Shown: piece after piece, positions 8,736 through 40,308 of the stretch
Numbering within the stretch: position 1 is the stretch's first letter
Layout of the letters: every line of letters begins with the position of its first letter
Virus genome (UHGV): UHGV-0211239
Length of the DNA: 41,840 nucleotides
DNA from: a virus
Reading direction: 5' to 3' (one strand)
Translations under genes and position numbers: made by a program
The notes under the pieces: generated by a model
What the model saw: only the letters and a program-made list of their open reading frames with translations
Told to the model about the DNA's origin: nothing
Databases searched by the model: none

Positions 8736-9267
8736 TGGAATCAACCTTTATATGAACCCAGTTAGCATCACGCTTTAGCCTACTTGCCCAAGTCTTAGAT
8801 ATCCCGTACTTAGCCGCAATTACTGACAAGCTTTCTTTTGATGACTTGATTGCAAGAACATCGTCATCACTCAACTTGTGTTTTGGGTGCTTGGTTCCGA
8901 AAAACTTGATTGGTTTCTTTAATCCTGTGGCGTATGCATGTTTGATGTTTTCGCTTTGAGTGCACCACTCAAGATTATTGACGTTATTATTGAGTGGATT
9001 GCCATCAATATGATTTACCTGAGGCTTGTTTTCAGGATTTGGCAGGAATGTCATTGCAACGATTCGATGGGCAAAAGTCCATTTTGCTCCGATATTATAA
9101 AGCACCCTTCCCTGATTTATTTTAGGCTTTAACCAGCGCCCCTTTCTGAGTTGCGTGCTGCCATGCGCAGCCTTAACAACACGTGAGTGAGAATACACCC
9201 TGCCATCTTCTGTTACGGCATAAACACCTTCAAATCCAGGTATATCTTTAGCATTCTCAGAAAGCAT
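8683..9267 (-). CDS. HNH homing endonuclease (NUMOD4 - HNH - C-terminal HTH)
   Basis: 194 aa; GFEGVYAVTEDGRVYS (NUMOD4-like), HIDGNPLNNNVNNLEW...N (HNH), C-terminal DDDVLAIKSS..LSVIAAKYGISKTWASRLKR (HTH); SD aaggag; 3' end overlaps gp10 start in another frame. Confidence 0.8.
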   Translation of the reverse strand: MLSENAKDIPGFEGVYAVTEDGRVYSHSRVVKAAHGSTQLRKGRWLKPKINQGRVLYNIGAKWTFAHRIVAMTFLPNPENKPQVNHIDGNPLNNNVNNLEWCTQSENIKHAYATGLKKPIKFFGTKHPKHKLSDDDVLAIKSSKESLSVIAAKYGISKTWASRLKRDANWVHIKVDSNGNTTTTTNEGIREKCG

Positions 9268-12393: not shown

Positions 12394-14559
12394 TTATTGA
12401 GGTGTCTCGGCTACTCCGCCGGAGGGGATTTGAACTTGACGCATAAGATTCGCGAAATCCATGCGTTGTGAATGAGTCTGGTCTGCATCTTTAAGAAGCA
12501 GCTCAGCGTTAGCACGAGCATCTTTGCTGCGCTGTTGCTGGAATTGACCTACGAGCTTGAGGTACTCACGCAGTTCTGCCTGCTTGTCGAGGTCCATATT
12601 GTTGAAGATTTCTGCAATCTTCGCGGCGTTGAGTTGGTTTTGGGCTTCAACCTTGGCGGCTTCAACCTGAATCTGCGCCTGTTGGTTCTCTGCCTTGAGC
12701 AATTCAGCCTGACCTTGCAGAAGGATACCCTGAGCCTGAATTTGCTCTGCTGATGGCTGCTGCGGCTGTTGTTGTGCCTGCTGTACCATCTCCATCTCTT
12801 CAGGTGTTTCTGGTTTCTTCAGCCCCATCATCACCAGTTGCTTGTTCGCGTACTCTCGCATCATCTCGACGCCTTTACCGTCAAGCAGCGTGAAGTATTG
12901 CAGCATCAGCATCTGGAACTCTGGAGTACCTTGCGGAACCTTGGTGAGTAACTCCTGAATCTCTGCGCGGTTCTGTTCCTTCATGCTCTGGAAGGATGGC
13001 CCAACGTCCGTATAGCACTCATAGCGACCGCGAATGTCGTTGAGTGTGACCACATTGCCGGACTGGTAATCTACAACTTGCGCATAGAGTTGAACGTCTT
13101 TCTCGCTTCCATCTTCAAGTGTCAGCGTTACATGACGAGGAACGTCATAAATATCGTTGACCATTGAGGCATAAATCTCGCCATCACGTCGCATTGCGGT
13201 AGCAAGGTTATCCTGAAACACGTATGTCTCAAGGTCTGCCCGCATGTTCAGTTGATTGACGGTATCGAAAGCGACCTGACCATTTGCCGCCTGCGCATCC
13301 ACGCCAAGACTAGCCACCTCTTTCACTGCGTTGGTGGCTGCCTCAAGCATGTAAGCGTTGGCTTGCGGCACTTCAGGGTTTTCCATGTAGGAGATTGGAC
13401 CAATCGGCAGGTCGTTGCCGTTTTCATCGGTCTTGTTCTGCAAATAGTACGGATAGTCATCATTTCCACCGTACATGTATTCGTAGCCTTCGATTTGCTC
13501 AGGGAAGAAGGTCGGTTTCTTCTTCGGTGAACGAGCAACAATATCGGCGTTGAATGACATGATCATGTTACGAAGGCGTTGACCGTCTTTCGTCAGCCTT
13601 ACCACTCCTTCGTAGCACTCCTTGTCACCAGCGAATGACCATTCGCCATACACTGGAACGATTGGAATATGCTCTCCGGCTATCTTCTCGCGGTCTTTCA
13701 GTATCTGCGTGCAGGTGATGATCGACTTATACACACGCCGACGCTTGACCTTACGCTCTGCTACCTTAATGAATCCACGATTAGCCAGGTCATCGATGAC
13801 GTCTTTGATATCCTGCTGGTAATAGCTGACCGGCTCACCTGTCAGCGGGTCGCGGTAGATGAAGACTTTCTCCTTCTTCTCTTCTACCTCGTAATACTCA
13901 GCGACGTAGACGACATCATTCGACACCCAAGGAAACAGCCATGTGTCGTTCGGATTCTGGAAAGATGGCAAGGTGTCCGGATCAATACCGTAATCCTCTG
14001 CGAACTCTTTCCAGCCATTGCGTGACAAGGCGTTAATCACCGTGCAGTGCTTAGCGTCGCTCTTATCCATCTGCTTGCTGTTGGCGTCCCATATGACGTG
14101 TGAGCAGGCTTCATGGATTGGCAGGCGTCGGATTACCTGATTGTTGCTTGTTGGGTCGTTGTCTTCGTACTGGGTGACCAGACGCCATGCACCAACGCCG
14201 GACTCTATCTGCTCACGAACGCCAACGTTAACGGCAATCTTTGCCGTGTTATGGCGCATATCAGTACGATACATTCCCATCAACACATCGGCAGCATCAG
14301 GATTAGCGCCGTCTTTGGGTCGGAAGAGAACGTCGATAGGGTTCCGTCGCATCTCTGCTACCAGTTTCCTGACCACCGGGCGAACAACATCGAATTGTCC
14401 GCGATATTGCAGGGTAGTGTAGTTTGATAGCCAGTCATCCCATTGCGACACTCGGCTAAAATACAGGTCATTTGTCGCCTCGGTTCTGGCTTCATCGCTC
14501 GCCATCCAGTCCGCGTCAAACTTACACAGAATGGAATTGAGTCTGTTTTCGTCGGCCAT
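12394..14559 (-). CDS. Portal protein, P22 gp1-like
   Basis: 721 aa; N-terminus [23 protein letters not shown] and long Gln-rich C-terminal helical barrel typical of P22 portal. Confidence 0.9.
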
Positions 14560-16059
14560 TTAAGTTCTCCGTGCGATGGGCCTGATTGGGGCTGGTATCT
14601 TTTTCTCTTTTGGTTTTTTGATGTCGCGCATCATTTTGGCGAAGCGGCGCATCATGTATGCATAGCGAACGGCTGAGAGAACGTCGTCGTTAAGCTTGAC
14701 GATTTTCCCGTTTTCATCACGGTGATAGAGGCGGAACTCCTCAAAGAATGGCTCACAGGTGTTGAATACTTTGAAGCGACCATCGAGCATCATGTCGCGC
14801 AATTCAGTGATGCCAGGCTCCACAGCATTACCGCCATCAGGCCATGTCGCATGCTCCTGCAACATCATAAAACCAGCATCTGCATACTGCCCTTTGAGCT
14901 GCTCACCGCCGCCCTTCTCGTGCTGGTTTCCGTCATGAGGCCATGCGGTTGGCACTTTATGCGCCCATGATTTAACAGCTCCCCATGCCTGAACGGCTGT
15001 TTTTTCTTTCGCCTTCCACACGCGTGAAACGTAGATTGTGTCTGCGTCCTTATCCCACCAAAGCTGAACCTGCGCCTGTGGGTGATCCCATCCGAAATCC
15101 ATCCCGCCAATTACGTAGAAGTGATCAGGACACTCGAACGGCTGACACTTAATCGTCTCTTCCGGTATCTGGAAGATTCGACCACTACCCATCGTAGGAA
15201 TACCGCGAGCACGCGCCTCTCTCTCATGCTCGGGATAGGATGCGATGATTTGCTCTTTCTGCTCGTCTGTGTAGTGCTCAGCGTCGTAGATGGTCATGTT
15301 GACCACTTTCTGTGACTTGCTGGGATTCTTCAGGAACTTGGTAACAACGTCAGACATCCCCATCAGCGGGGTAAACGTCAGAATTGAGAATTGCCCGTAT
15401 TTGTTGGTACGGGTAAGACCTTCGCCATAAATGCTGTATGGTGGCTCTTCGTCAAACCACACGCCGTGGATTGTGTCACCCTGCCAGCGAGCACGGCCTT
15501 GCGAGTATGGTTTGAAGTAGCAGATTGAAATGCCATCTTCAACGCCATCAGCCGTGTGATGCTTAACCAGAAGATGATCAACAAGGTTCGGAAAGAAAGG
15601 AGACTTCTTCCAGCTAATGATGTCTTCTTTCGGTATGGAACCGTAGCCAGGCTCATCATTCTCTTCGATACGACCGCACAGGATACGTTGAGTCGTTTTG
15701 GTTACAGTCTCGTTTGTCTCGCCGCCAATCCAGAAGACAACAGGCTCATAGAAACGCTTACCTTTCCACTCCCCGCCATATTTACCATCAGCCGGATAGC
15801 CTTTTGTGCCCGGATAACGCCCGGTAAGGTGAAACGCGACTTCAGCAGCACCAGTAAATGACTTACCAAGCTGGTTACCAGCCATAAAACATCGCTCTGG
15901 ATAGTCATGTCCGGCGTCGATGAACTCACGCTGTTTGCTGTATGGCGTAAATTCATATAGCAAGTGTGTGTTCCGGTAGTTCTCTTCTTCTTCGAGTAGC
16001 TCGAGCAACTCGATTTGCTCTTCGTCGCTCAGGTTATCAAGAATCGCGTCCAGTTCCAC
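14560..16059 (-). CDS. Terminase large subunit, P22 gp2-like
   Basis: 499 aa (same as P22 gp2); ATPase and nuclease regions; directly upstream of portal. Confidence 0.9.
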
Positions 16060-16531
16060 GGTTGAATAGCTCCTTGATACGAGAACGTCGCTTATCGCGA
16101 TCTCCCTTATCAGGTGTCACGTCTTCAACTTGCGACTGCTCTTTGAGGCCCAAATCACGGGCGATGATGTTAGCGTTGAGAAGGTCAGCGGCTGCGCCAG
16201 AGAATTTCTGGTCGTAGATGATGTCTTCCGCTCGTGATGTGACGTCAGAAAAACCTTCCATTGACCGGAAGGTTCCCCATGTTTGCCTGGTGATATCAAG
16301 GAAGGTACACAATCCTGAAATCGTCATGGCTCGCATCTTAGGGACATTAGCCTTAATTATTTCTCCCTGATATGAAAATACCTTACCCTCCCATAGCGGG
16401 TTATCATCAGCCCACTCGAAGTATTCACAACAAGCAGCCCACAGCGCCTCAGGCGATTCGAATTTAGGATTTCGCCCATGACTACTGCGGGCCTCCCAAA
16501 ATCGGTTGCCCTTTGGTGCTGCCATATTCAT
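16037..16531 (-). CDS. Terminase small subunit, P22 gp3-like
   Basis: 164 aa; [46 protein letters not shown] matches P22 gp3 N-terminus; overlaps terL start. Confidence 0.9.
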
Positions 16532-18355: not shown

Positions 18356-18598
18356 GTCTTACCCCCAATAAGGGGATTTGCTCTATTTAATTAGGAATAA
18401 GGTCGATTACTGATAGAACAAATCCAGGCTACTGTGTTTAGTAATCAGATTTGTTCGTGACCGATATGCACGGGCAAAACGGCATGAGGTTGTTAGCGCA
18501 ACCTCCTGCCACCCGCTTTCACGAAGGTCATGTGTAGAAGGCCGCAGCGTAACTATCACTGATGAATTCAGGATAGCCAGTGGCTACGGCTCAGTTAT

Positions 18599-18673
18599 GG
18601 TGCTGGTTAACGGACTTGAACCGCTACACATTCGCTTACAAGGCGACTGCTCTACCATTGGAGCTAAACCAGC
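18599..18673 (-). tRNA. tRNA-Thr-like (anticodon UGU)
   Basis: Manual cloverleaf on minus strand: 7/7 acceptor stem, 4-bp D stem, anticodon loop CUUGUAA, T stem with loop UUCAAGU, discriminator A then CC; one non-WC pair at 27-43 and C at position 14. Confidence 0.55.
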
Positions 18674-18678
18674 ATATT

Positions 18679-18753
18679 TGGCGGGACAGCGTGGACTCGA
18701 ACCACGATAAGAAGGTTAACAGCCTTCCGTAATGACCTTTATACGACTGACCC
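18679..18753 (-). tRNA. tRNA-Asn-like (anticodon GUU), possibly degenerate
   Basis: Manual cloverleaf: anticodon stem 5/5 with loop CUGUUAA, T arm CGUGG-UUCGAGU-CCACG, encoded CCA; acceptor stem has one U-U mismatch, D stem 3 bp. Confidence 0.45.
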
Positions 18754-19010
18754 AAATAAAAAATCCCGAAACCGTTATGCAGGATCTAACTATTACCTGC
18801 GAACTGTTTCGGGATTGCATTTGCAGACCTCTCAGCCTGCGATGGTTGGAGTTCCAGACGATACGTCGAAGTGACCAACTAGGCGGAATCGGTAGTAAGC
18901 GCCGCCTCTTTTCATCTCACTACCACAACGAGCGAATTAACCCATCGTTGGGTCAAATTTACCCAACTTTATTCAAAAAGTCAATATCATGCCGTTAATA
19001 TGTTGCCATC
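18754..19010 (-). promoter_or_regulatory. Late promoter PR', qut and 6S-RNA/tR' leader (lambda-type)
   Basis: Minus-strand sequence ttgactttttgaataaagttgggtaaatttgacccaacgatgggttaattcgctcg...cccgaaac...ggtttcgggatttttt matches the lambda PR'/6S leader ending in the tR' hairpin and U-run. Confidence 0.65.
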
Positions 19011-19026
19011 CGTGGCAATCATGCTG

Positions 19027-19650
19027 CTAACGTGTGACCGCATTCAAAATGTTGTCTGCGATTGACTCTTCTTTGTGGCATTGCACCACCAGAGCGTCAT
19101 ACAGAGGCTTAACAGTGCGTGACCAGGTGGGTTGAGTAAGGTTTGGGATTAGCATCGTTACAGCGCGATATGCGGCGCTTGCTGGCATTCTTGAATAGCC
19201 GACACCTTTGCATCTTCCGCACTCTTTCTCAACAACTCTCCCCCACTGCTCTGTTTTGGCTATATCAACCGCACGGCCTGTACCGTGGCAATCTCTGCAT
19301 CTTGCGCCCGGCGTAGCGGCACTACGACAATAATCCGCATAAGCGAATGTTGCGAGCACTTGCAGTACCTTTGCCTTAGTATTTCCTTCAAGCTTTGCCA
19401 CACCACGGTATTTCCCCGATACCTTGTGTGCAAATTGCATCAGATAGTTGATAGCCTTTTGTTTGTCGTTCTGGCTGAGTTCGTGCTTACCACAGAATGC
19501 AGCCATTCCGAATCCGGCTTGTGATTGCGCCATCCCCATAGCAGCCATCACATCAGTACCGGAAAGAGAGTCAGAAGCCGTAGCCCGTGGTGAGTCGCTC
19601 ATCATCGGGCTTTTTGGCGAATGAAATTTAGCTACGCTTTCGAGTCTCAT
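19027..19650 (-). CDS. Q: Late antiterminator Q (lambda-type)
   Basis: 207 aa; essentially identical to lambda Q as recalled ([28 protein letters not shown]...). Confidence 0.9.
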
Positions 19651-24483: not shown

Positions 24484-25357
24484 GAACTTTCAGGTAGGTA
24501 TTGTCGTTAAGCAGGAAATCAAATCCCTTTTTGTGCCAGACGGTTCCGCGTTGATGGTTTGGACGTTCTTCGAACATCCATCGGCAATTTTCGCCTACGT
24601 AGATCAAATAATTTCTCCAGTCCTGCATCGTGAACCCATGCCCGTCAAGCTGGCGGGTTATCACTCCGGCTTTGCGCCAGAACGTTCGGATCTGGTTTTT
24701 ACGCTTGTCATTCAGTGCGCGGATTTTTGGCGCTTCAGGAAGGATTTCGTGGTAAGCATCGACAACATCCTGACAGCTAACGGAAGGTTTTTTCTTGTCA
24801 GACTTTTTGTCTGCTGTGGCACTCTCTAATACGTCAGTATTAGAGATAATATTATTATATTCTTTATCTGTGGTAATTTGCTGGTAATCTGCTGGTACAG
24901 TATTGCTTACAGGCATTGGTATTGCTGGATTTGAGGTGGTAATTTGCTGGTAATCTGCTGGTACAAAATTTGACTGATAATCGTCATATTTCTCTACCGA
25001 GAAAACTGAGAATTTACCGTGTGAAACCCAGTCAATCATGCCGAGTTTTTTGAACTTTCTAAGCAGGTACTGAACGCGATCTGGTTTGAGTCCTGTTTCA
25101 AACGCCAGAGAGTTTCTACCGCCAAGTAGCTTCCCTCTGCCTACCAGAATTTCTCCTGCGTCAGTCATTACATACTCAGGCGTATGCTTTGCTTTGAGGA
25201 TTAAGTGAACCCACAGATGCGCTGCTTCTGCGTCCTTGTAAAACGGCACATCCATAATTTTACGGTGCAGCAAGGCATACCCCTTACCGCTGCTTTGATG
25301 CGGTTGTTGTAGCCTTCTGGCCTCTCTGGCTTCGGCTAGATTAGATATGTTACTCAT
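24458..25357 (-). CDS. Replication initiator (lambda O-like; P22 gene 18 analogue)
   Basis: 299 aa; O-like N-terminal domain; internal duplicated peptide [10 protein letters not shown] encoded by the ori iterons. Confidence 0.85.
24838..24960. repeat. Origin of replication: iterons plus AT-rich stretch inside the O-like gene
   Basis: Two copies of ggtaatttgctggtaatctgctggtaca separated by about 60 bp, adjacent AT-rich tract attagagataatattattatattc. Confidence 0.65.
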
Positions 25358-35476: not shown

Positions 35477-35824
35477 GTGGAAGAAGAAATCTTCACTCGT
35501 GAAGAAGCTGCGTCGTATCTGAAGGTAGACAAAGGCACTATCACGCAGTGGATACGAAGTGGACGACTTCAGGCCGCAAAGATAAATCCAGATAAACCTA
35601 AAAGCCCATATCGCATTTGCAAGTCAGACTGCATTGCGGCGCTTAAGTCTGTGAGACACAATAGCGCGGTGAATGCGGTTGATGTGCAGGAGGTTAAAGC
35701 ATGTCAATCAAACTACGCGGTGGCACGTGGCACTGCGATTTCGTCGCGCCAGATGGATCAAGAGTTAGACGCTCTCTTGAAACATCGGACAAAAGGCAAG
35801 CGCAAGAACTTCACGATCGTCTGA
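35477..35824 (+). CDS. xis: Excisionase (MerR-like HTH)
   Basis: TREEAASYLKVDKGTITQWIRSGRL HTH near N-terminus; immediately upstream of and overlapping int. Confidence 0.65.
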   Translation: MEEEIFTREEAASYLKVDKGTITQWIRSGRLQAAKINPDKPKSPYRICKSDCIAALKSVRHNSAVNAVDVQEVKACQSNYAVARGTAISSRQMDQELDALLKHRTKGKRKNFTIV

Positions 35825-36861
35825 AAGCAGAAGCGTGGAGAGTAAAAAATCTCGGGGAATCGCCGAAAAAGCTATTCAAGGAAGCCTGCATACGGTGGCT
35901 GCGTGAGAAATCGGATAAGAAGTCCATTGATGATGACAAGAGCATTATATCGTTCTGGATGTTGCACTTCAGAGAAACCATTCTCTCTGACATAACAGCA
36001 GAAAAAATAATGGAGGCGGTAGACGGGATGGAAAACCGCCGCCATCGCCTGAACTGGGAGATGAGCCGGGACAGGTGTTTGCGGCTTGGCAAGCCAGTGC
36101 CGGAGTATAAACCAAAGCTGGCAAGCAAAGGAACGAAGACGAGGCATCTGGCAATACTTCGCGCCATTCTCAATATGGCTGTTGAATGGGGATGGATTGA
36201 CAGGGCGCCAAAAATATCAACACCACGCGTTAAGAATGGACGCATTAGATGGCTTACAGAAGAAGAATCAAAGCGCCTGTTTGCAGAAATAGCTCCTCAT
36301 TTCTTCCCTGTTGTCATGTTTGCAATCACGACAGGCCTTCGCCGCTCCAACGTTACAGACCTTGAGTGGTCACAGGTCGATCTGGATAAGAAAATGGCAT
36401 GGATGCACCCTGATGAAACAAAAGCTGGCAATGCGATCGGAGTTCCTCTTAACGAAACCGCATGCCAGATATTAAGAAAACAGCAGGGTCTCCATAAGAG
36501 ATGGGTATTTGTCCACACCAAACCTGCCTACCGAAGCGACGGAACAAAAACAGCAGCGGTAAGGAAGATGAGAACCGACAGCAACAAGGCATGGAAGGGA
36601 GCGTTAAAGCGGGCAGGCATTAGCAACTTCCGATTCCATGACTTGAGGCATACTTGGGCAAGCTGGCTGGTTCAGTCCGGTGTCTCTCTTCTTGCACTTA
36701 AAGAGATGGGAGGATGGGAAACTCTCGAAATGGTTCAAAGATACGCTCACCTTTCAGCCGGGCATCTCACCGAGCACGCGAGCAAAATCGATGCGATTAT
36801 AAGTCGCAATGGCACAAATACGGCACAAGAGGAGAACGTGGTTTACTTAAATGTGAGGTAA
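35701..36861 (+). CDS. int: Tyrosine integrase (P22 Int-like)
   Basis: 386 aa; catalytic-domain motifs (HDLRHTWASWLVQSGV, MGGWETLEMVQRYAHL); attP adjacent. Confidence 0.9.
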   Translation: MSIKLRGGTWHCDFVAPDGSRVRRSLETSDKRQAQELHDRLKAEAWRVKNLGESPKKLFKEACIRWLREKSDKKSIDDDKSIISFWMLHFRETILSDITAEKIMEAVDGMENRRHRLNWEMSRDRCLRLGKPVPEYKPKLASKGTKTRHLAILRAILNMAVEWGWIDRAPKISTPRVKNGRIRWLTEEESKRLFAEIAPHFFPVVMFAITTGLRRSNVTDLEWSQVDLDKKMAWMHPDETKAGNAIGVPLNETACQILRKQQGLHKRWVFVHTKPAYRSDGTKTAAVRKMRTDSNKAWKGALKRAGISNFRFHDLRHTWASWLVQSGVSLLALKEMGGWETLEMVQRYAHLSAGHLTEHASKIDAIISRNGTNTAQEENVVYLNVR

Positions 36862-37941: not shown

Positions 37942-40308
37942 TTAAATAAACATAAGAATAAACATCAGAAGTTCCTCGTATCTGATACCATACTGATAAC
38001 CAGCAGGTTTAATAATAACCTGCCTTCCTGTGTAATATTCCTCGTCGTACCACTCTCCTGTTTCATTGTTTTTAACACTCCTAATTAATACCTCTGGAGC
38101 ATAAATATCATCCCATTCATCATAACACCAGAACGCATAGTTATTAGGGTCAAGACCGTATTTTCTGAGAATATTACCTACAGTTTGTGCACCAACACCG
38201 AAATGAATCCGAGCGCCATCACTCTTGATCTTTACTGCATCTTTAAATTTAAACCTCCAGATATTTTTCTTTATTTCAAGCGCAGCAAGACGCTCTGATT
38301 CTGTTGTTTTCTCGTCAGCCTCAATACGCAATTTCAGCTCTTCATTCGACGTGTTGATACTGCCAGTACCAGCGTATACCTGTGACCATCGAAATGCTGA
38401 TGTTCCGTTTGAGTTAACATTATCAACAGTTGGTTTTATAAGGCCAGAAAAATGAGTTTCAGGTGATGTATGAAGAAGATATCCGCCAGAATCGTTTTTT
38501 GTGCGTAATTCTATAGAGTCTACAATTATTCCACTGCGACGAATAATGATAGCGTTATTACCTTGTGCACCATTGTCTTTCTGAGTGGATAGTGTGTATC
38601 CGGTACGAGTATCTATCCTCCATCTTTTGGTATCTTCTGATGCTTCCTGATTATAAAGATAAATAGAGTTATCAGTGTAATTATTTTTGCCATCAATATT
38701 TGTAAGTGTAAATTTGTTATTTACTTTGTCATCATTGACCATGAAATTGGCAAGAGTGTAGAGAGGAGATGCAGTATACTGGCTGCAATTAAAACCACGT
38801 GCGTTTTGTATGTTAAGTAATGTTGTGACATTAGCATTAATGCTAATATTGGAAAAGTTTGTCGCCTGATTTGCTCCATGTATTGATGATGTTACTCCTA
38901 TCTGAGCTCCAATATCCAATGTACCAAAACTTACATTAATGAAGTTGTTTGCATCGCCACCATCTATAATTATTCCTTTTTTAGTCGTCGTATAACCTGA
39001 TGCACTGCTAATCTCCAATCCATTAATGGTGCACACTCTTGGTCTGATGAGTCTAATTCCTACCCATTCATTTCCGTGGTCATATCCTCCTCCTGCTCTA
39101 TGTATGGCTAGTCCATTAGCAATCAAAAGAAATCTGTTATCAAGATTAATAGGGTGAAGCTGGCTATTAATGATAACGTTTGTCCATATAGACTCACCAT
39201 ACGCATAGCGATTTGATTCGAACACTCTATCCTGAGCATCATAAACACCGTTTAGGGATCTAGCAACATCGACATTGGTAAGATTGAAATATGTCTTCTG
39301 CTTAATTTCAAAAAAATTGGCAACGTTATGCGTTGTGATATCACTCACACGCATGGATAAAATACCTTCTTCTGGAGCGGTGCGAATGAATCCATCAAGG
39401 AACTGTTCATTATAACTTTTGGCTATCTGATAACATCCAACAGCATCAATGCGTTCGATTGTGAACTGCCAACTATCACCACAGTTAAAAGACCATTCCC
39501 AACCGTACTTCTGTGCGAATTCATCAGAATCAATATTTGCAGTCTCAGAACAGAAAGATAAAAATCTAAATGTTGGTTTTGGCCTTAGATGATTAAGCCC
39601 GACACCTCTTGGGGTATATATGGCATTAGCTCCATTCCCGCCTTTGCTTTTAATTGTAAGGTGACTTAAACCAAATTCAACATCATGCTTAGTTGGTGCA
39701 GCGAAAACAAATCCATCTTTTGGTGATGTGGTATTATCAAACACAATAACTGTTTTACCCTGTCCATCGCCACACATATTCACTGGTGGTATATTAACTG
39801 GTCCAATTAAATTATATGTTCCAGTTGGAATATATAACTTTCCACCATCTCCAAGAGCATTTGCTGCTGCAATAAATGCCACCGTATCATCGTTAACACC
39901 GTCACCTTTCGCCCCATAATGCTGTGGCGTAATTAACAGCATACGGTCAGAAAAAATCTCTTCCCTAAGTTGATCAGGATCGTATTTTAATACATTTGGA
40001 AAATAAAACTGCTGAGTGCCATATGCATCATATACAGCCATAGAATGGCCTTGCACAGTTACGAATTTGGCAATCTGCCCGTTATATACCGGATATCCAG
40101 CAGCGTTAATGATGATTGGTTGCGAAACAGGAACATGAGAGCCGTCTTCGTTCTCTACATAAACCTGAATCTGGTTTTCAGGATTTACCGGGTCAGTATC
40201 AATTTTACCGATATAAATTTTGCCATTGGCTACGGATTTAAAAGAACGCGCCATAGTGAAGAGTTGCGAAGGCATACTCACTACAACATTGGCTGTAATG
40301 TCTGTCAT
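37942..40308 (-). CDS. Tailspike: P22-type head-binding N-domain, pectate-lyase-like beta-helix, C-terminal intramolecular chaperone (S74-like)
   Basis: 788 aa; N-terminal about 110 aa matches P22 gp9 ([11 protein letters not shown]...VLKYDPDQ); [13 protein letters not shown] motif; C-terminal SNEELK...[10 protein letters not shown] resembles self-cleaving chaperone domains. Confidence 0.8.

Follow-up and report, generated by a model that had tools for sequence, protein, structure and literature searches.

Introduction

In headful phages, the choice of DNA for packaging depends on pac specificity, and so do the set of host loci transferred by generalized and lateral transduction and the range of satellites that can be mobilised (PMC8575950). 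The closest described system for the locus studied here is that of P22, a Salmonella phage in which pac lies inside gene 3, the gene for the small terminase subunit TerS (gp3) (PMC8022706). GenBank record BK000583.1 annotates a 'packaging recognition by terminase (pac) site' at bases 4-25, with the sequence GAAGATTTATCTGAAGTCGTTA. This corresponds to bp 268-289 of gene 3, a 22-bp asymmetric site within terS, and the same 22-mer is given as P22 pac in PMC4837284, PMC5261728 and PMC11447400. High-transducing (HT) phenotypes come from point mutations in TerS (PMC6636781). The C-terminal tail of P22 gp3 binds the large terminase TerL; experiments in vitro have yet to show that P22 TerS binds pac sequence-specifically, and how it recognises the site is not settled (PMC9611059).

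P22-like phages may also carry a second type of terminase, that of Sf6. Leavitt's work of 2013 is said to describe the DNA-binding region of Sf6 TerS, with pac embedded in it, as a self-contained module that can be exchanged horizontally. A pac inside the recognition-specifying segment of terS, exchanged as a module, is known biology. A third relevant system is that of satellites that capture the packaging signals of their helpers, the SaPI/PICI paradigm. EcCIMP1, which belongs to the phage-inducible chromosomal islands (PICIs), is mobilised by phage Kapi1 at very low frequency; no terminase gene was reported for it, and its packaging mechanism was left open (PMC11773190).

Here we analyse the small terminase gene in a 41,840-nucleotide stretch of viral DNA (the window), in which an earlier note had pointed out a divergent pac region. 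From sequence comparison, and with a probability of roughly 0.6, we propose that a 22-mer in this gene is the pac site of this Lederbergvirus phage, embedded in an exchanged terS cassette and with a specificity distinct from that of P22.

Results

A P22-like terminase block

On its minus strand at 16037-16531, the window carries a terS of the P22 gp3 type, whose product has 164 amino acids if the first ATG is used and 162 if translation begins at 16525, the equivalent of the P22 start. The ORF matches the PF16677 profile (GP3_package, 'DNA-packaging protein gp3') over residues 19-135, with an E value of 8.6e-31 and 106.7 bits against a curated cut-off of 29.4. It also aligns over residues 3-164, full length, with the solved P22 gp3 nonamer subunit 3P9A (E 1.2e-90). 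The T4-type large terminase gene terL (minus strand, 14560-16059; 499 aa; matches to PF03237 and PF17289) overlaps the end of terS by 23 nt, as P22 gene 2 does, and is followed by a 721-aa portal ORF at 12394-14559, which is the gene order of P22; packaging would run in the terL direction. Protein family, gene order, the 23-nt terS/terL overlap and the position of the site within terS are common to both phages, whereas their hosts differ, E. coli for the window phage and Salmonella for P22.

Identity to P22 is 94-98% over the first ~1.4 kb from the terS start, and 93-99% around the swapped cassette described below, from -300 to +1400 relative to the terS start (~1.7 kb). It falls from ~95% to ~74% near the terL 3′ end, into the portal gene (14560-14660, beyond +1400), and collapses upstream of -300. 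The loss of identity on both sides indicates that the P22-like terminase block is itself a mosaic segment.

The window as a whole (1-41840) looks like a complete mosaic P22-like genome. Its virion module is nearest to APC_JM3.2 and IME10 (~96%), and its early/replication region to Stx-converting, HK75 and mEp-type lambdoid phages (~96%). It encodes a 386-aa integrase ORF at 35701-36861 and a tailspike-sized ORF of 788 aa at 37942-40308. Two tRNA genes, tRNA-Thr(TGT) at 18598-18673 and tRNA-Asn(GTT) at 18679-18753, lie on the minus strand, with the late-gene activator region on one side and the lysis genes on the other; in Kapi1 this pair of tRNA genes occupies the same place on the map.

A swapped cassette inside terS

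Within terS, identity to P22 breaks sharply at gene positions 122 and 310. The 189-bp cassette between these boundaries (16222-16410, minus strand; residues 41-104) is 64.5% identical to P22. Its flanks are 99.2% identical at positions 1-121 and 99.5% at positions 311-495, the latter being the conserved 3′ part of the gene (16037-16221, minus strand; residues 105-164), which includes the C-terminal tail. About 30 residues differ from P22 gp3, all of them within positions 41-104; the N-terminal 40 and C-terminal 59 residues are identical in the two proteins. With the N-terminal part and the TerL-binding tail unchanged, the exchange would amount to a retargeting of the same motor.

The allele is shared by a group of E. 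coli Lederbergvirus phages (IME10, E212, HZ41, EC.P3, Louie, Dewey and CurroJimenez_Bas106), whose cassettes are at least 98.9% identical to that of the window and whose 22-mer is the same. Their terS genes are 99.0-99.4% identical to that of the window, with IME10 gene 3 at 99.4%, and their records label the gene just 'terminase small subunit'; we see no substantive difference between them and the window. The cassette also occurs in more than 55 IMG/VR contigs, and terS is matched at 95% identity or more, in some cases only in part, by about 150 complete-genome records of E. coli. Several E. coli phages that have been sequenced and numerous prophages already contain the allele, which makes it, as such, an ordinary finding. 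In the E212 paper, the papers mentioning IME10 and the records of the allele we found no packaging-end mapping or pac annotation for it. A TerS 100% identical to that of the window, with an identical 22-mer, is also found on JAUVQU010000080.1, a 9.7-kb contig of a 'Cellvibrionaceae bacterium' MAG. The contig most probably belongs to an E. coli phage and was binned into a marine MAG by mistake.

The cassette is composite. Emek-type alleles differ from the window in residues 41-66 and share residues 69-103, and a type-D allele (locus L072) is P22-like up to about residue 67-68 and different afterwards.

A 22-mer homologous to P22 pac

The interval flagged in the earlier note, 16226-16267, covers terS codons 89-102 on the minus strand (reverse complement CGGTCAATGGAAGGTTTTTCTGACGTCACATCACGAGCGGAA). 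In the HMMER alignment to 3P9A it pairs with P22 RLREDLSEVVTRAE, and the heptapeptide EGFSDVT, encoded by 16238-16258, pairs with P22 REDLSEVVTRAE. This pairing shows that EDLSEVV, which the note had given as the P22 peptide, is right, and together with the translation it bears out the reading EGFSDVT in its place.

Gap-free alignment to the annotated P22 pac places the homologous 22-mer, GAAGGTTTTTCTGACGTCACAT, at 16237-16258 on the minus strand (terS positions 274-295, numbered from the upstream ATG), making it the candidate packaging recognition site. It is identical to GAAGATTTATCTGAAGTCGTTA at 15 of 22 bases, including 15 of the first 18, and shares with it the framework GAAG.TTT.TCTGA.GTC; the DNA has thus changed along with the peptide, as had been stated, with 7 bases differing. 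The 22-mer is single-copy in the 41.8 kb when up to 3 mismatches are allowed (0 expected by chance), and no sequence in the window comes within 3 mismatches of the P22 pac. At 15/22, the window's 22-mer does not count as the P22 pac sequence or as a variant of it with only a few tolerated changes. Set against the rest of the cassette its identity is not exceptional, at 16/22 at best, with other 22-nt windows reaching 19/22, so pairwise identity alone is uninformative about function.

Family-wide constraint on the DNA at the site

We compared 63 gp3-family loci, one genome per species, ranging from Enterobacterales to Rhizobiales and Cellvibrionales. The usable set comprised 55 genes, whose GC3 lies between 0.28 and 0.77. 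The most biased third positions in the gene are those of codons 92, 93 and 94, which are almost always A/T (z -6.8, -6.0 and -6.8), and the third position of codon 97 is always G/C and almost always C (z +6.8); the sequences are non-independent, which inflates the absolute z values and leaves the ranking within the alignment fair. Four of the five most extreme codons fall within the 8 codons under the annotated P22 pac (P ~1.4e-5).

As a same-amino-acid control, codon use at the site was compared with that elsewhere in the same genes. Glu at codon 92 is GAA in 35 of 35 cases (52% elsewhere), Asp at codon 93 is GAT in 35 of 38 (51% elsewhere), and at codon 94 Phe is TTT in 36 of 37 (29% elsewhere) and Leu is TTA or TTG (TTR) in 14 of 15 (23% elsewhere). 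At codon 97, Val is GTC in 34 of 35 cases, against 24% elsewhere, and Ile is ATC in all 18, against 53%. These controls exclude ordinary codon usage as the cause of the frozen positions. Conservation of the DNA at this site therefore exceeds what the encoded protein requires. The frozen codons 92-94 and 97 indicate that the gp3 family maintains a nucleotide framework, GAA-GAT/GGY-TTT/TTA…RTC, exactly here, and the window's 22-mer keeps it as GAAG.TTT......RTC.

This pattern bears on whether the 22-mer could be coding sequence only, with the functional pac elsewhere or with initiation that is imprecise or non-specific. A precedent of a kind exists in the P22-like phages with Sf6-type terminases, which reportedly initiate packaging over a broad region, also according to Leavitt in 2013. 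The terminase of the window is of the gp3 type instead, and synonymous positions are frozen at precisely this site across hosts of very different GC, which coding constraint cannot explain. We regard a pac outside the 22-mer as very improbable, and take the 22-mer to be the probable functional site in this phage.

Polymorphism within alleles was too sparse to add power to this comparison: in the 22-mer, 1 site varies in the window group (1.7 expected) and 0 in the P22-type group (2.3 expected). Third-position bias also occurs outside pac, at codon 79 (16295-16297, the Asp of FLDI; z -5.4) and codon 6 (16514-16516, Pro; z -6.3). These may be further DNA-level constraints in terS or phylogenetic artefacts.

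Evidence bearing on specificity

Gene 3 of the widely used high-transducing P22 derivative HT105/1 int-201 (MN161573.1, a record flagged UNVERIFIED) differs from the wild type (BK000583.1) by a single change, G277A, which replaces Asp93 (residue 91 in the 162-aa numbering) by Asn. The changed base is pac position 4 and lies inside both pac and the region of the swapped module, which contains residue 93. Because the base is part of pac and its change also alters the protein, the mutant changes TerS and its own pac together. In the window, the corresponding codon 93 (16253-16255, minus strand; pac positions 4-6) is GGT and encodes Gly, in place of the Asp that is altered in HT105/1; within this codon, at pac position 5, the window carries G and P22 A. 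The window phage thus differs from P22 in 7 of the 22 pac bases, in about 30 residues of TerS and at the very residue that is changed in HT105/1.

Upstream of the 22-mer, alleles that share the motif TRQTWGTFR keep GAAGGYTTTTCTGACRTCAC, though their cassettes are only 70-83% identical to that of the window. Other upstream motifs occur with other cores: P22-type TLETWRTYR with GAAGATTTATCTGAAGTCGTTA, and type-D SDETWRRFR with GAAGGTTTTTGTGGAGTCACTA. This covariation of motif and pac core is confounded by shared ancestry. The motif that covaries with the pac-like core falls in a putative helix-turn-helix just upstream of pac (codons 69-89; 16265-16327, minus strand), which is suggested by the sequence pattern. 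An AF2 model built on a 64-sequence alignment places helices at residues 71-77 and 82-89 with low confidence (mean pLDDT 51), and single-sequence prediction of TerS was likewise of low confidence (pLDDT 48.7). On the pattern and the alignment-based model, residues 69-89 would form a recognition helix-turn-helix.

The same data can be read as one site with effectively one specificity, in which recognition depends on the shared framework GAAG.TTT.TCTGA.GTC. The 7 differences would then be tolerated, neutral or a consequence of protein divergence, and the two terminases would recognise each other's sites. Agreement at 15 of 22 bases, with 15 of them among the first 18, fits such an account, as does the fact that the framework positions are those frozen across the whole gp3 family. 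Moreover, UAB_Phi20, whose P22-type pac is changed at positions 6 and 15, still packages (PMC4837284), and pac position 6 is polymorphic within the window's allele group as well. Against these points, the altered-specificity mutant HT105/1 is marked by one change, at pac position 4 and residue 93, and it is this residue, along with the neighbouring base of its codon, that differs in the window. The module was swapped in one piece, the protein changes gather around the site, and distinct cores are stably tied to distinct upstream motifs. We consider a shared specificity rather unlikely, but it takes most of the probability left beside our preferred reading, and with the framework retained the two specificities may overlap in part. 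The swapped cassette, the freezing of synonymous positions and the HT105/1 change at pac position 4 lend indirect support to the suggestion in the earlier note that the recognition sequence is not that of P22, and we conclude that the specificity of the window's pac probably differs from P22's.

A terS fragment in EcCIMP1-family islands

A search of 5426 complete E. coli genomes returned about 350 with a short match to terS positions 274-380 only, located under genes annotated as 'ash family protein'. The matches lie in an island at tRNA-Thr next to proA with the gene order integrase, HTH regulator, antirepressor, DUF4222, terS fragment, ash, icd-like, TOPRIM/DUF927 primase and P22-like genes 14, 7, 20 and 16. 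This element is the EcCIMP1 family of PICIs. The fragment is about 119 bp long (gene positions ~262-380) and starts about 10 bp before the 22-mer; its retention in the islands counts in favour of our preferred reading of the 22-mer as pac. It is found at ~24920-25045 in E. coli MP1 (NZ_CP139039.1, locus L241), at ~8990-9107 in loci L003 and L004, at ~1190-1307 in loci L169-L174, and also in locus L088. The fragment runs on the strand opposite to the island genes and overlaps the annotated ash-family ORF; the Pfam Ash domain of this ORF begins past the terS fragment, at residue 124.

All 10 islands examined have the core TTTTTGTGGAGTCAC unchanged. Downstream of the island 22-mer, the next 15-20 bases form a patchwork of window-type, P22-type and type-D tracts, which indicates repeated recombination of the islands with phage terS genes; some islands show tracts of the window's own allele type. 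EcCIMP1 itself, which has this piece of terS and no terS gene, carries the exact type-D 22-mer, which is identical to that of the window at 17 of 22 bases; the window contains no such island fragment.

Kapi1 (MT813197.1) encodes at 18704-19132 a 142-aa TerS of the Sf6 type (PF20901), and profile comparison of the gp3-type with this Sf6-type TerS gave a probability of 0.1%, that is, no meaningful similarity. None of the three 22-mers occurs in Kapi1 within 5 substitutions. The absence of a matching 22-mer fits the very low frequency of EcCIMP1 transfer and suggests that other helpers, of the gp3 type, exist.

A full type-D terS (EGFCGVT) was present in 1 of the 5426 complete E. coli genomes (NZ_CP174273.1, ST131 MB1159, 1580421-1580538) and in three IMG/VR contigs (L072/L089, L090 and L091), while the type-D 22-mer occurs in at least 150 island fragments. 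A straightforward account of the islands by an abundant cognate helper is unsupported, given this rarity. A scan of IMG/VR for the island junction gave one locus only.

We put forward, tentatively, that the pac 22-mer and ~100 bp downstream of it form a portable signal that circulates between gp3-type P22-like phages and EcCIMP1-family islands and has been captured for packaging. Islands lacking terS would then be packaged by gp3-type terminases through the captured fragment, and recombination of island fragments with phage terS alleles would reshuffle pac specificities. We think this possible, on balance doubtful; the fragment may instead be a relic. If true, it would explain the packaging route of EcCIMP1 and part of the cassette diversity.

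The cassette could have been selected for a reason other than a retargeting of packaging, such as escape from a satellite or defence system that exploits or senses TerS or pac, or hitch-hiking with the beta-hairpin region, and the pac difference would then be a by-product. The composite nature of the cassette, with its Emek-type and type-D patterns, agrees with this, and satellite pressure is plausible given EcCIMP1-family PICIs that carry pac-like fragments and a patchwork exchange with terS alleles. Such selection is compatible with a distinct pac specificity and does not exclude it; as the explanation in its own right we find it decidedly unlikely.

Discussion

In our preferred reading, that of a pac with its own specificity inside an exchanged cassette, TerS would recognise the pac 22-mer to start headful packaging. 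Recombination would have brought a cassette of ~189 bp, containing the beta-hairpin region, the putative helix-turn-helix and the pac 22-mer, into a terminase region otherwise identical to that of P22. As in P22, pac would lie within the terS codons for part of the region of the protein that determines recognition. A pac in this position links the protein determinant physically to its DNA target, so that the two travel together. The TerS residues encoded over and beside the 22-mer differ from those of P22, as does the site itself.

The arrangement resembles the Sf6 module in that the recognition site would lie within the DNA that codes for the recognition part of TerS, and in that part of the gene is exchanged while the part that interacts with the motor stays constant. 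It differs in the fold family of TerS (PF20901 in Sf6, PF16677 in the window) and in the place of the module, which is central in gp3 (residues ~41-104) and N-terminal in Sf6.

For annotation, the frozen GAA-GAT/GGY-TTT/TTA…RTC codons provide a rule by which the pac core can be located in terS genes of the gp3 family. A second defined pac/TerS pair on an otherwise P22-identical motor would in addition offer a clean experimental handle on the way in which terminases of the gp3 type read DNA.
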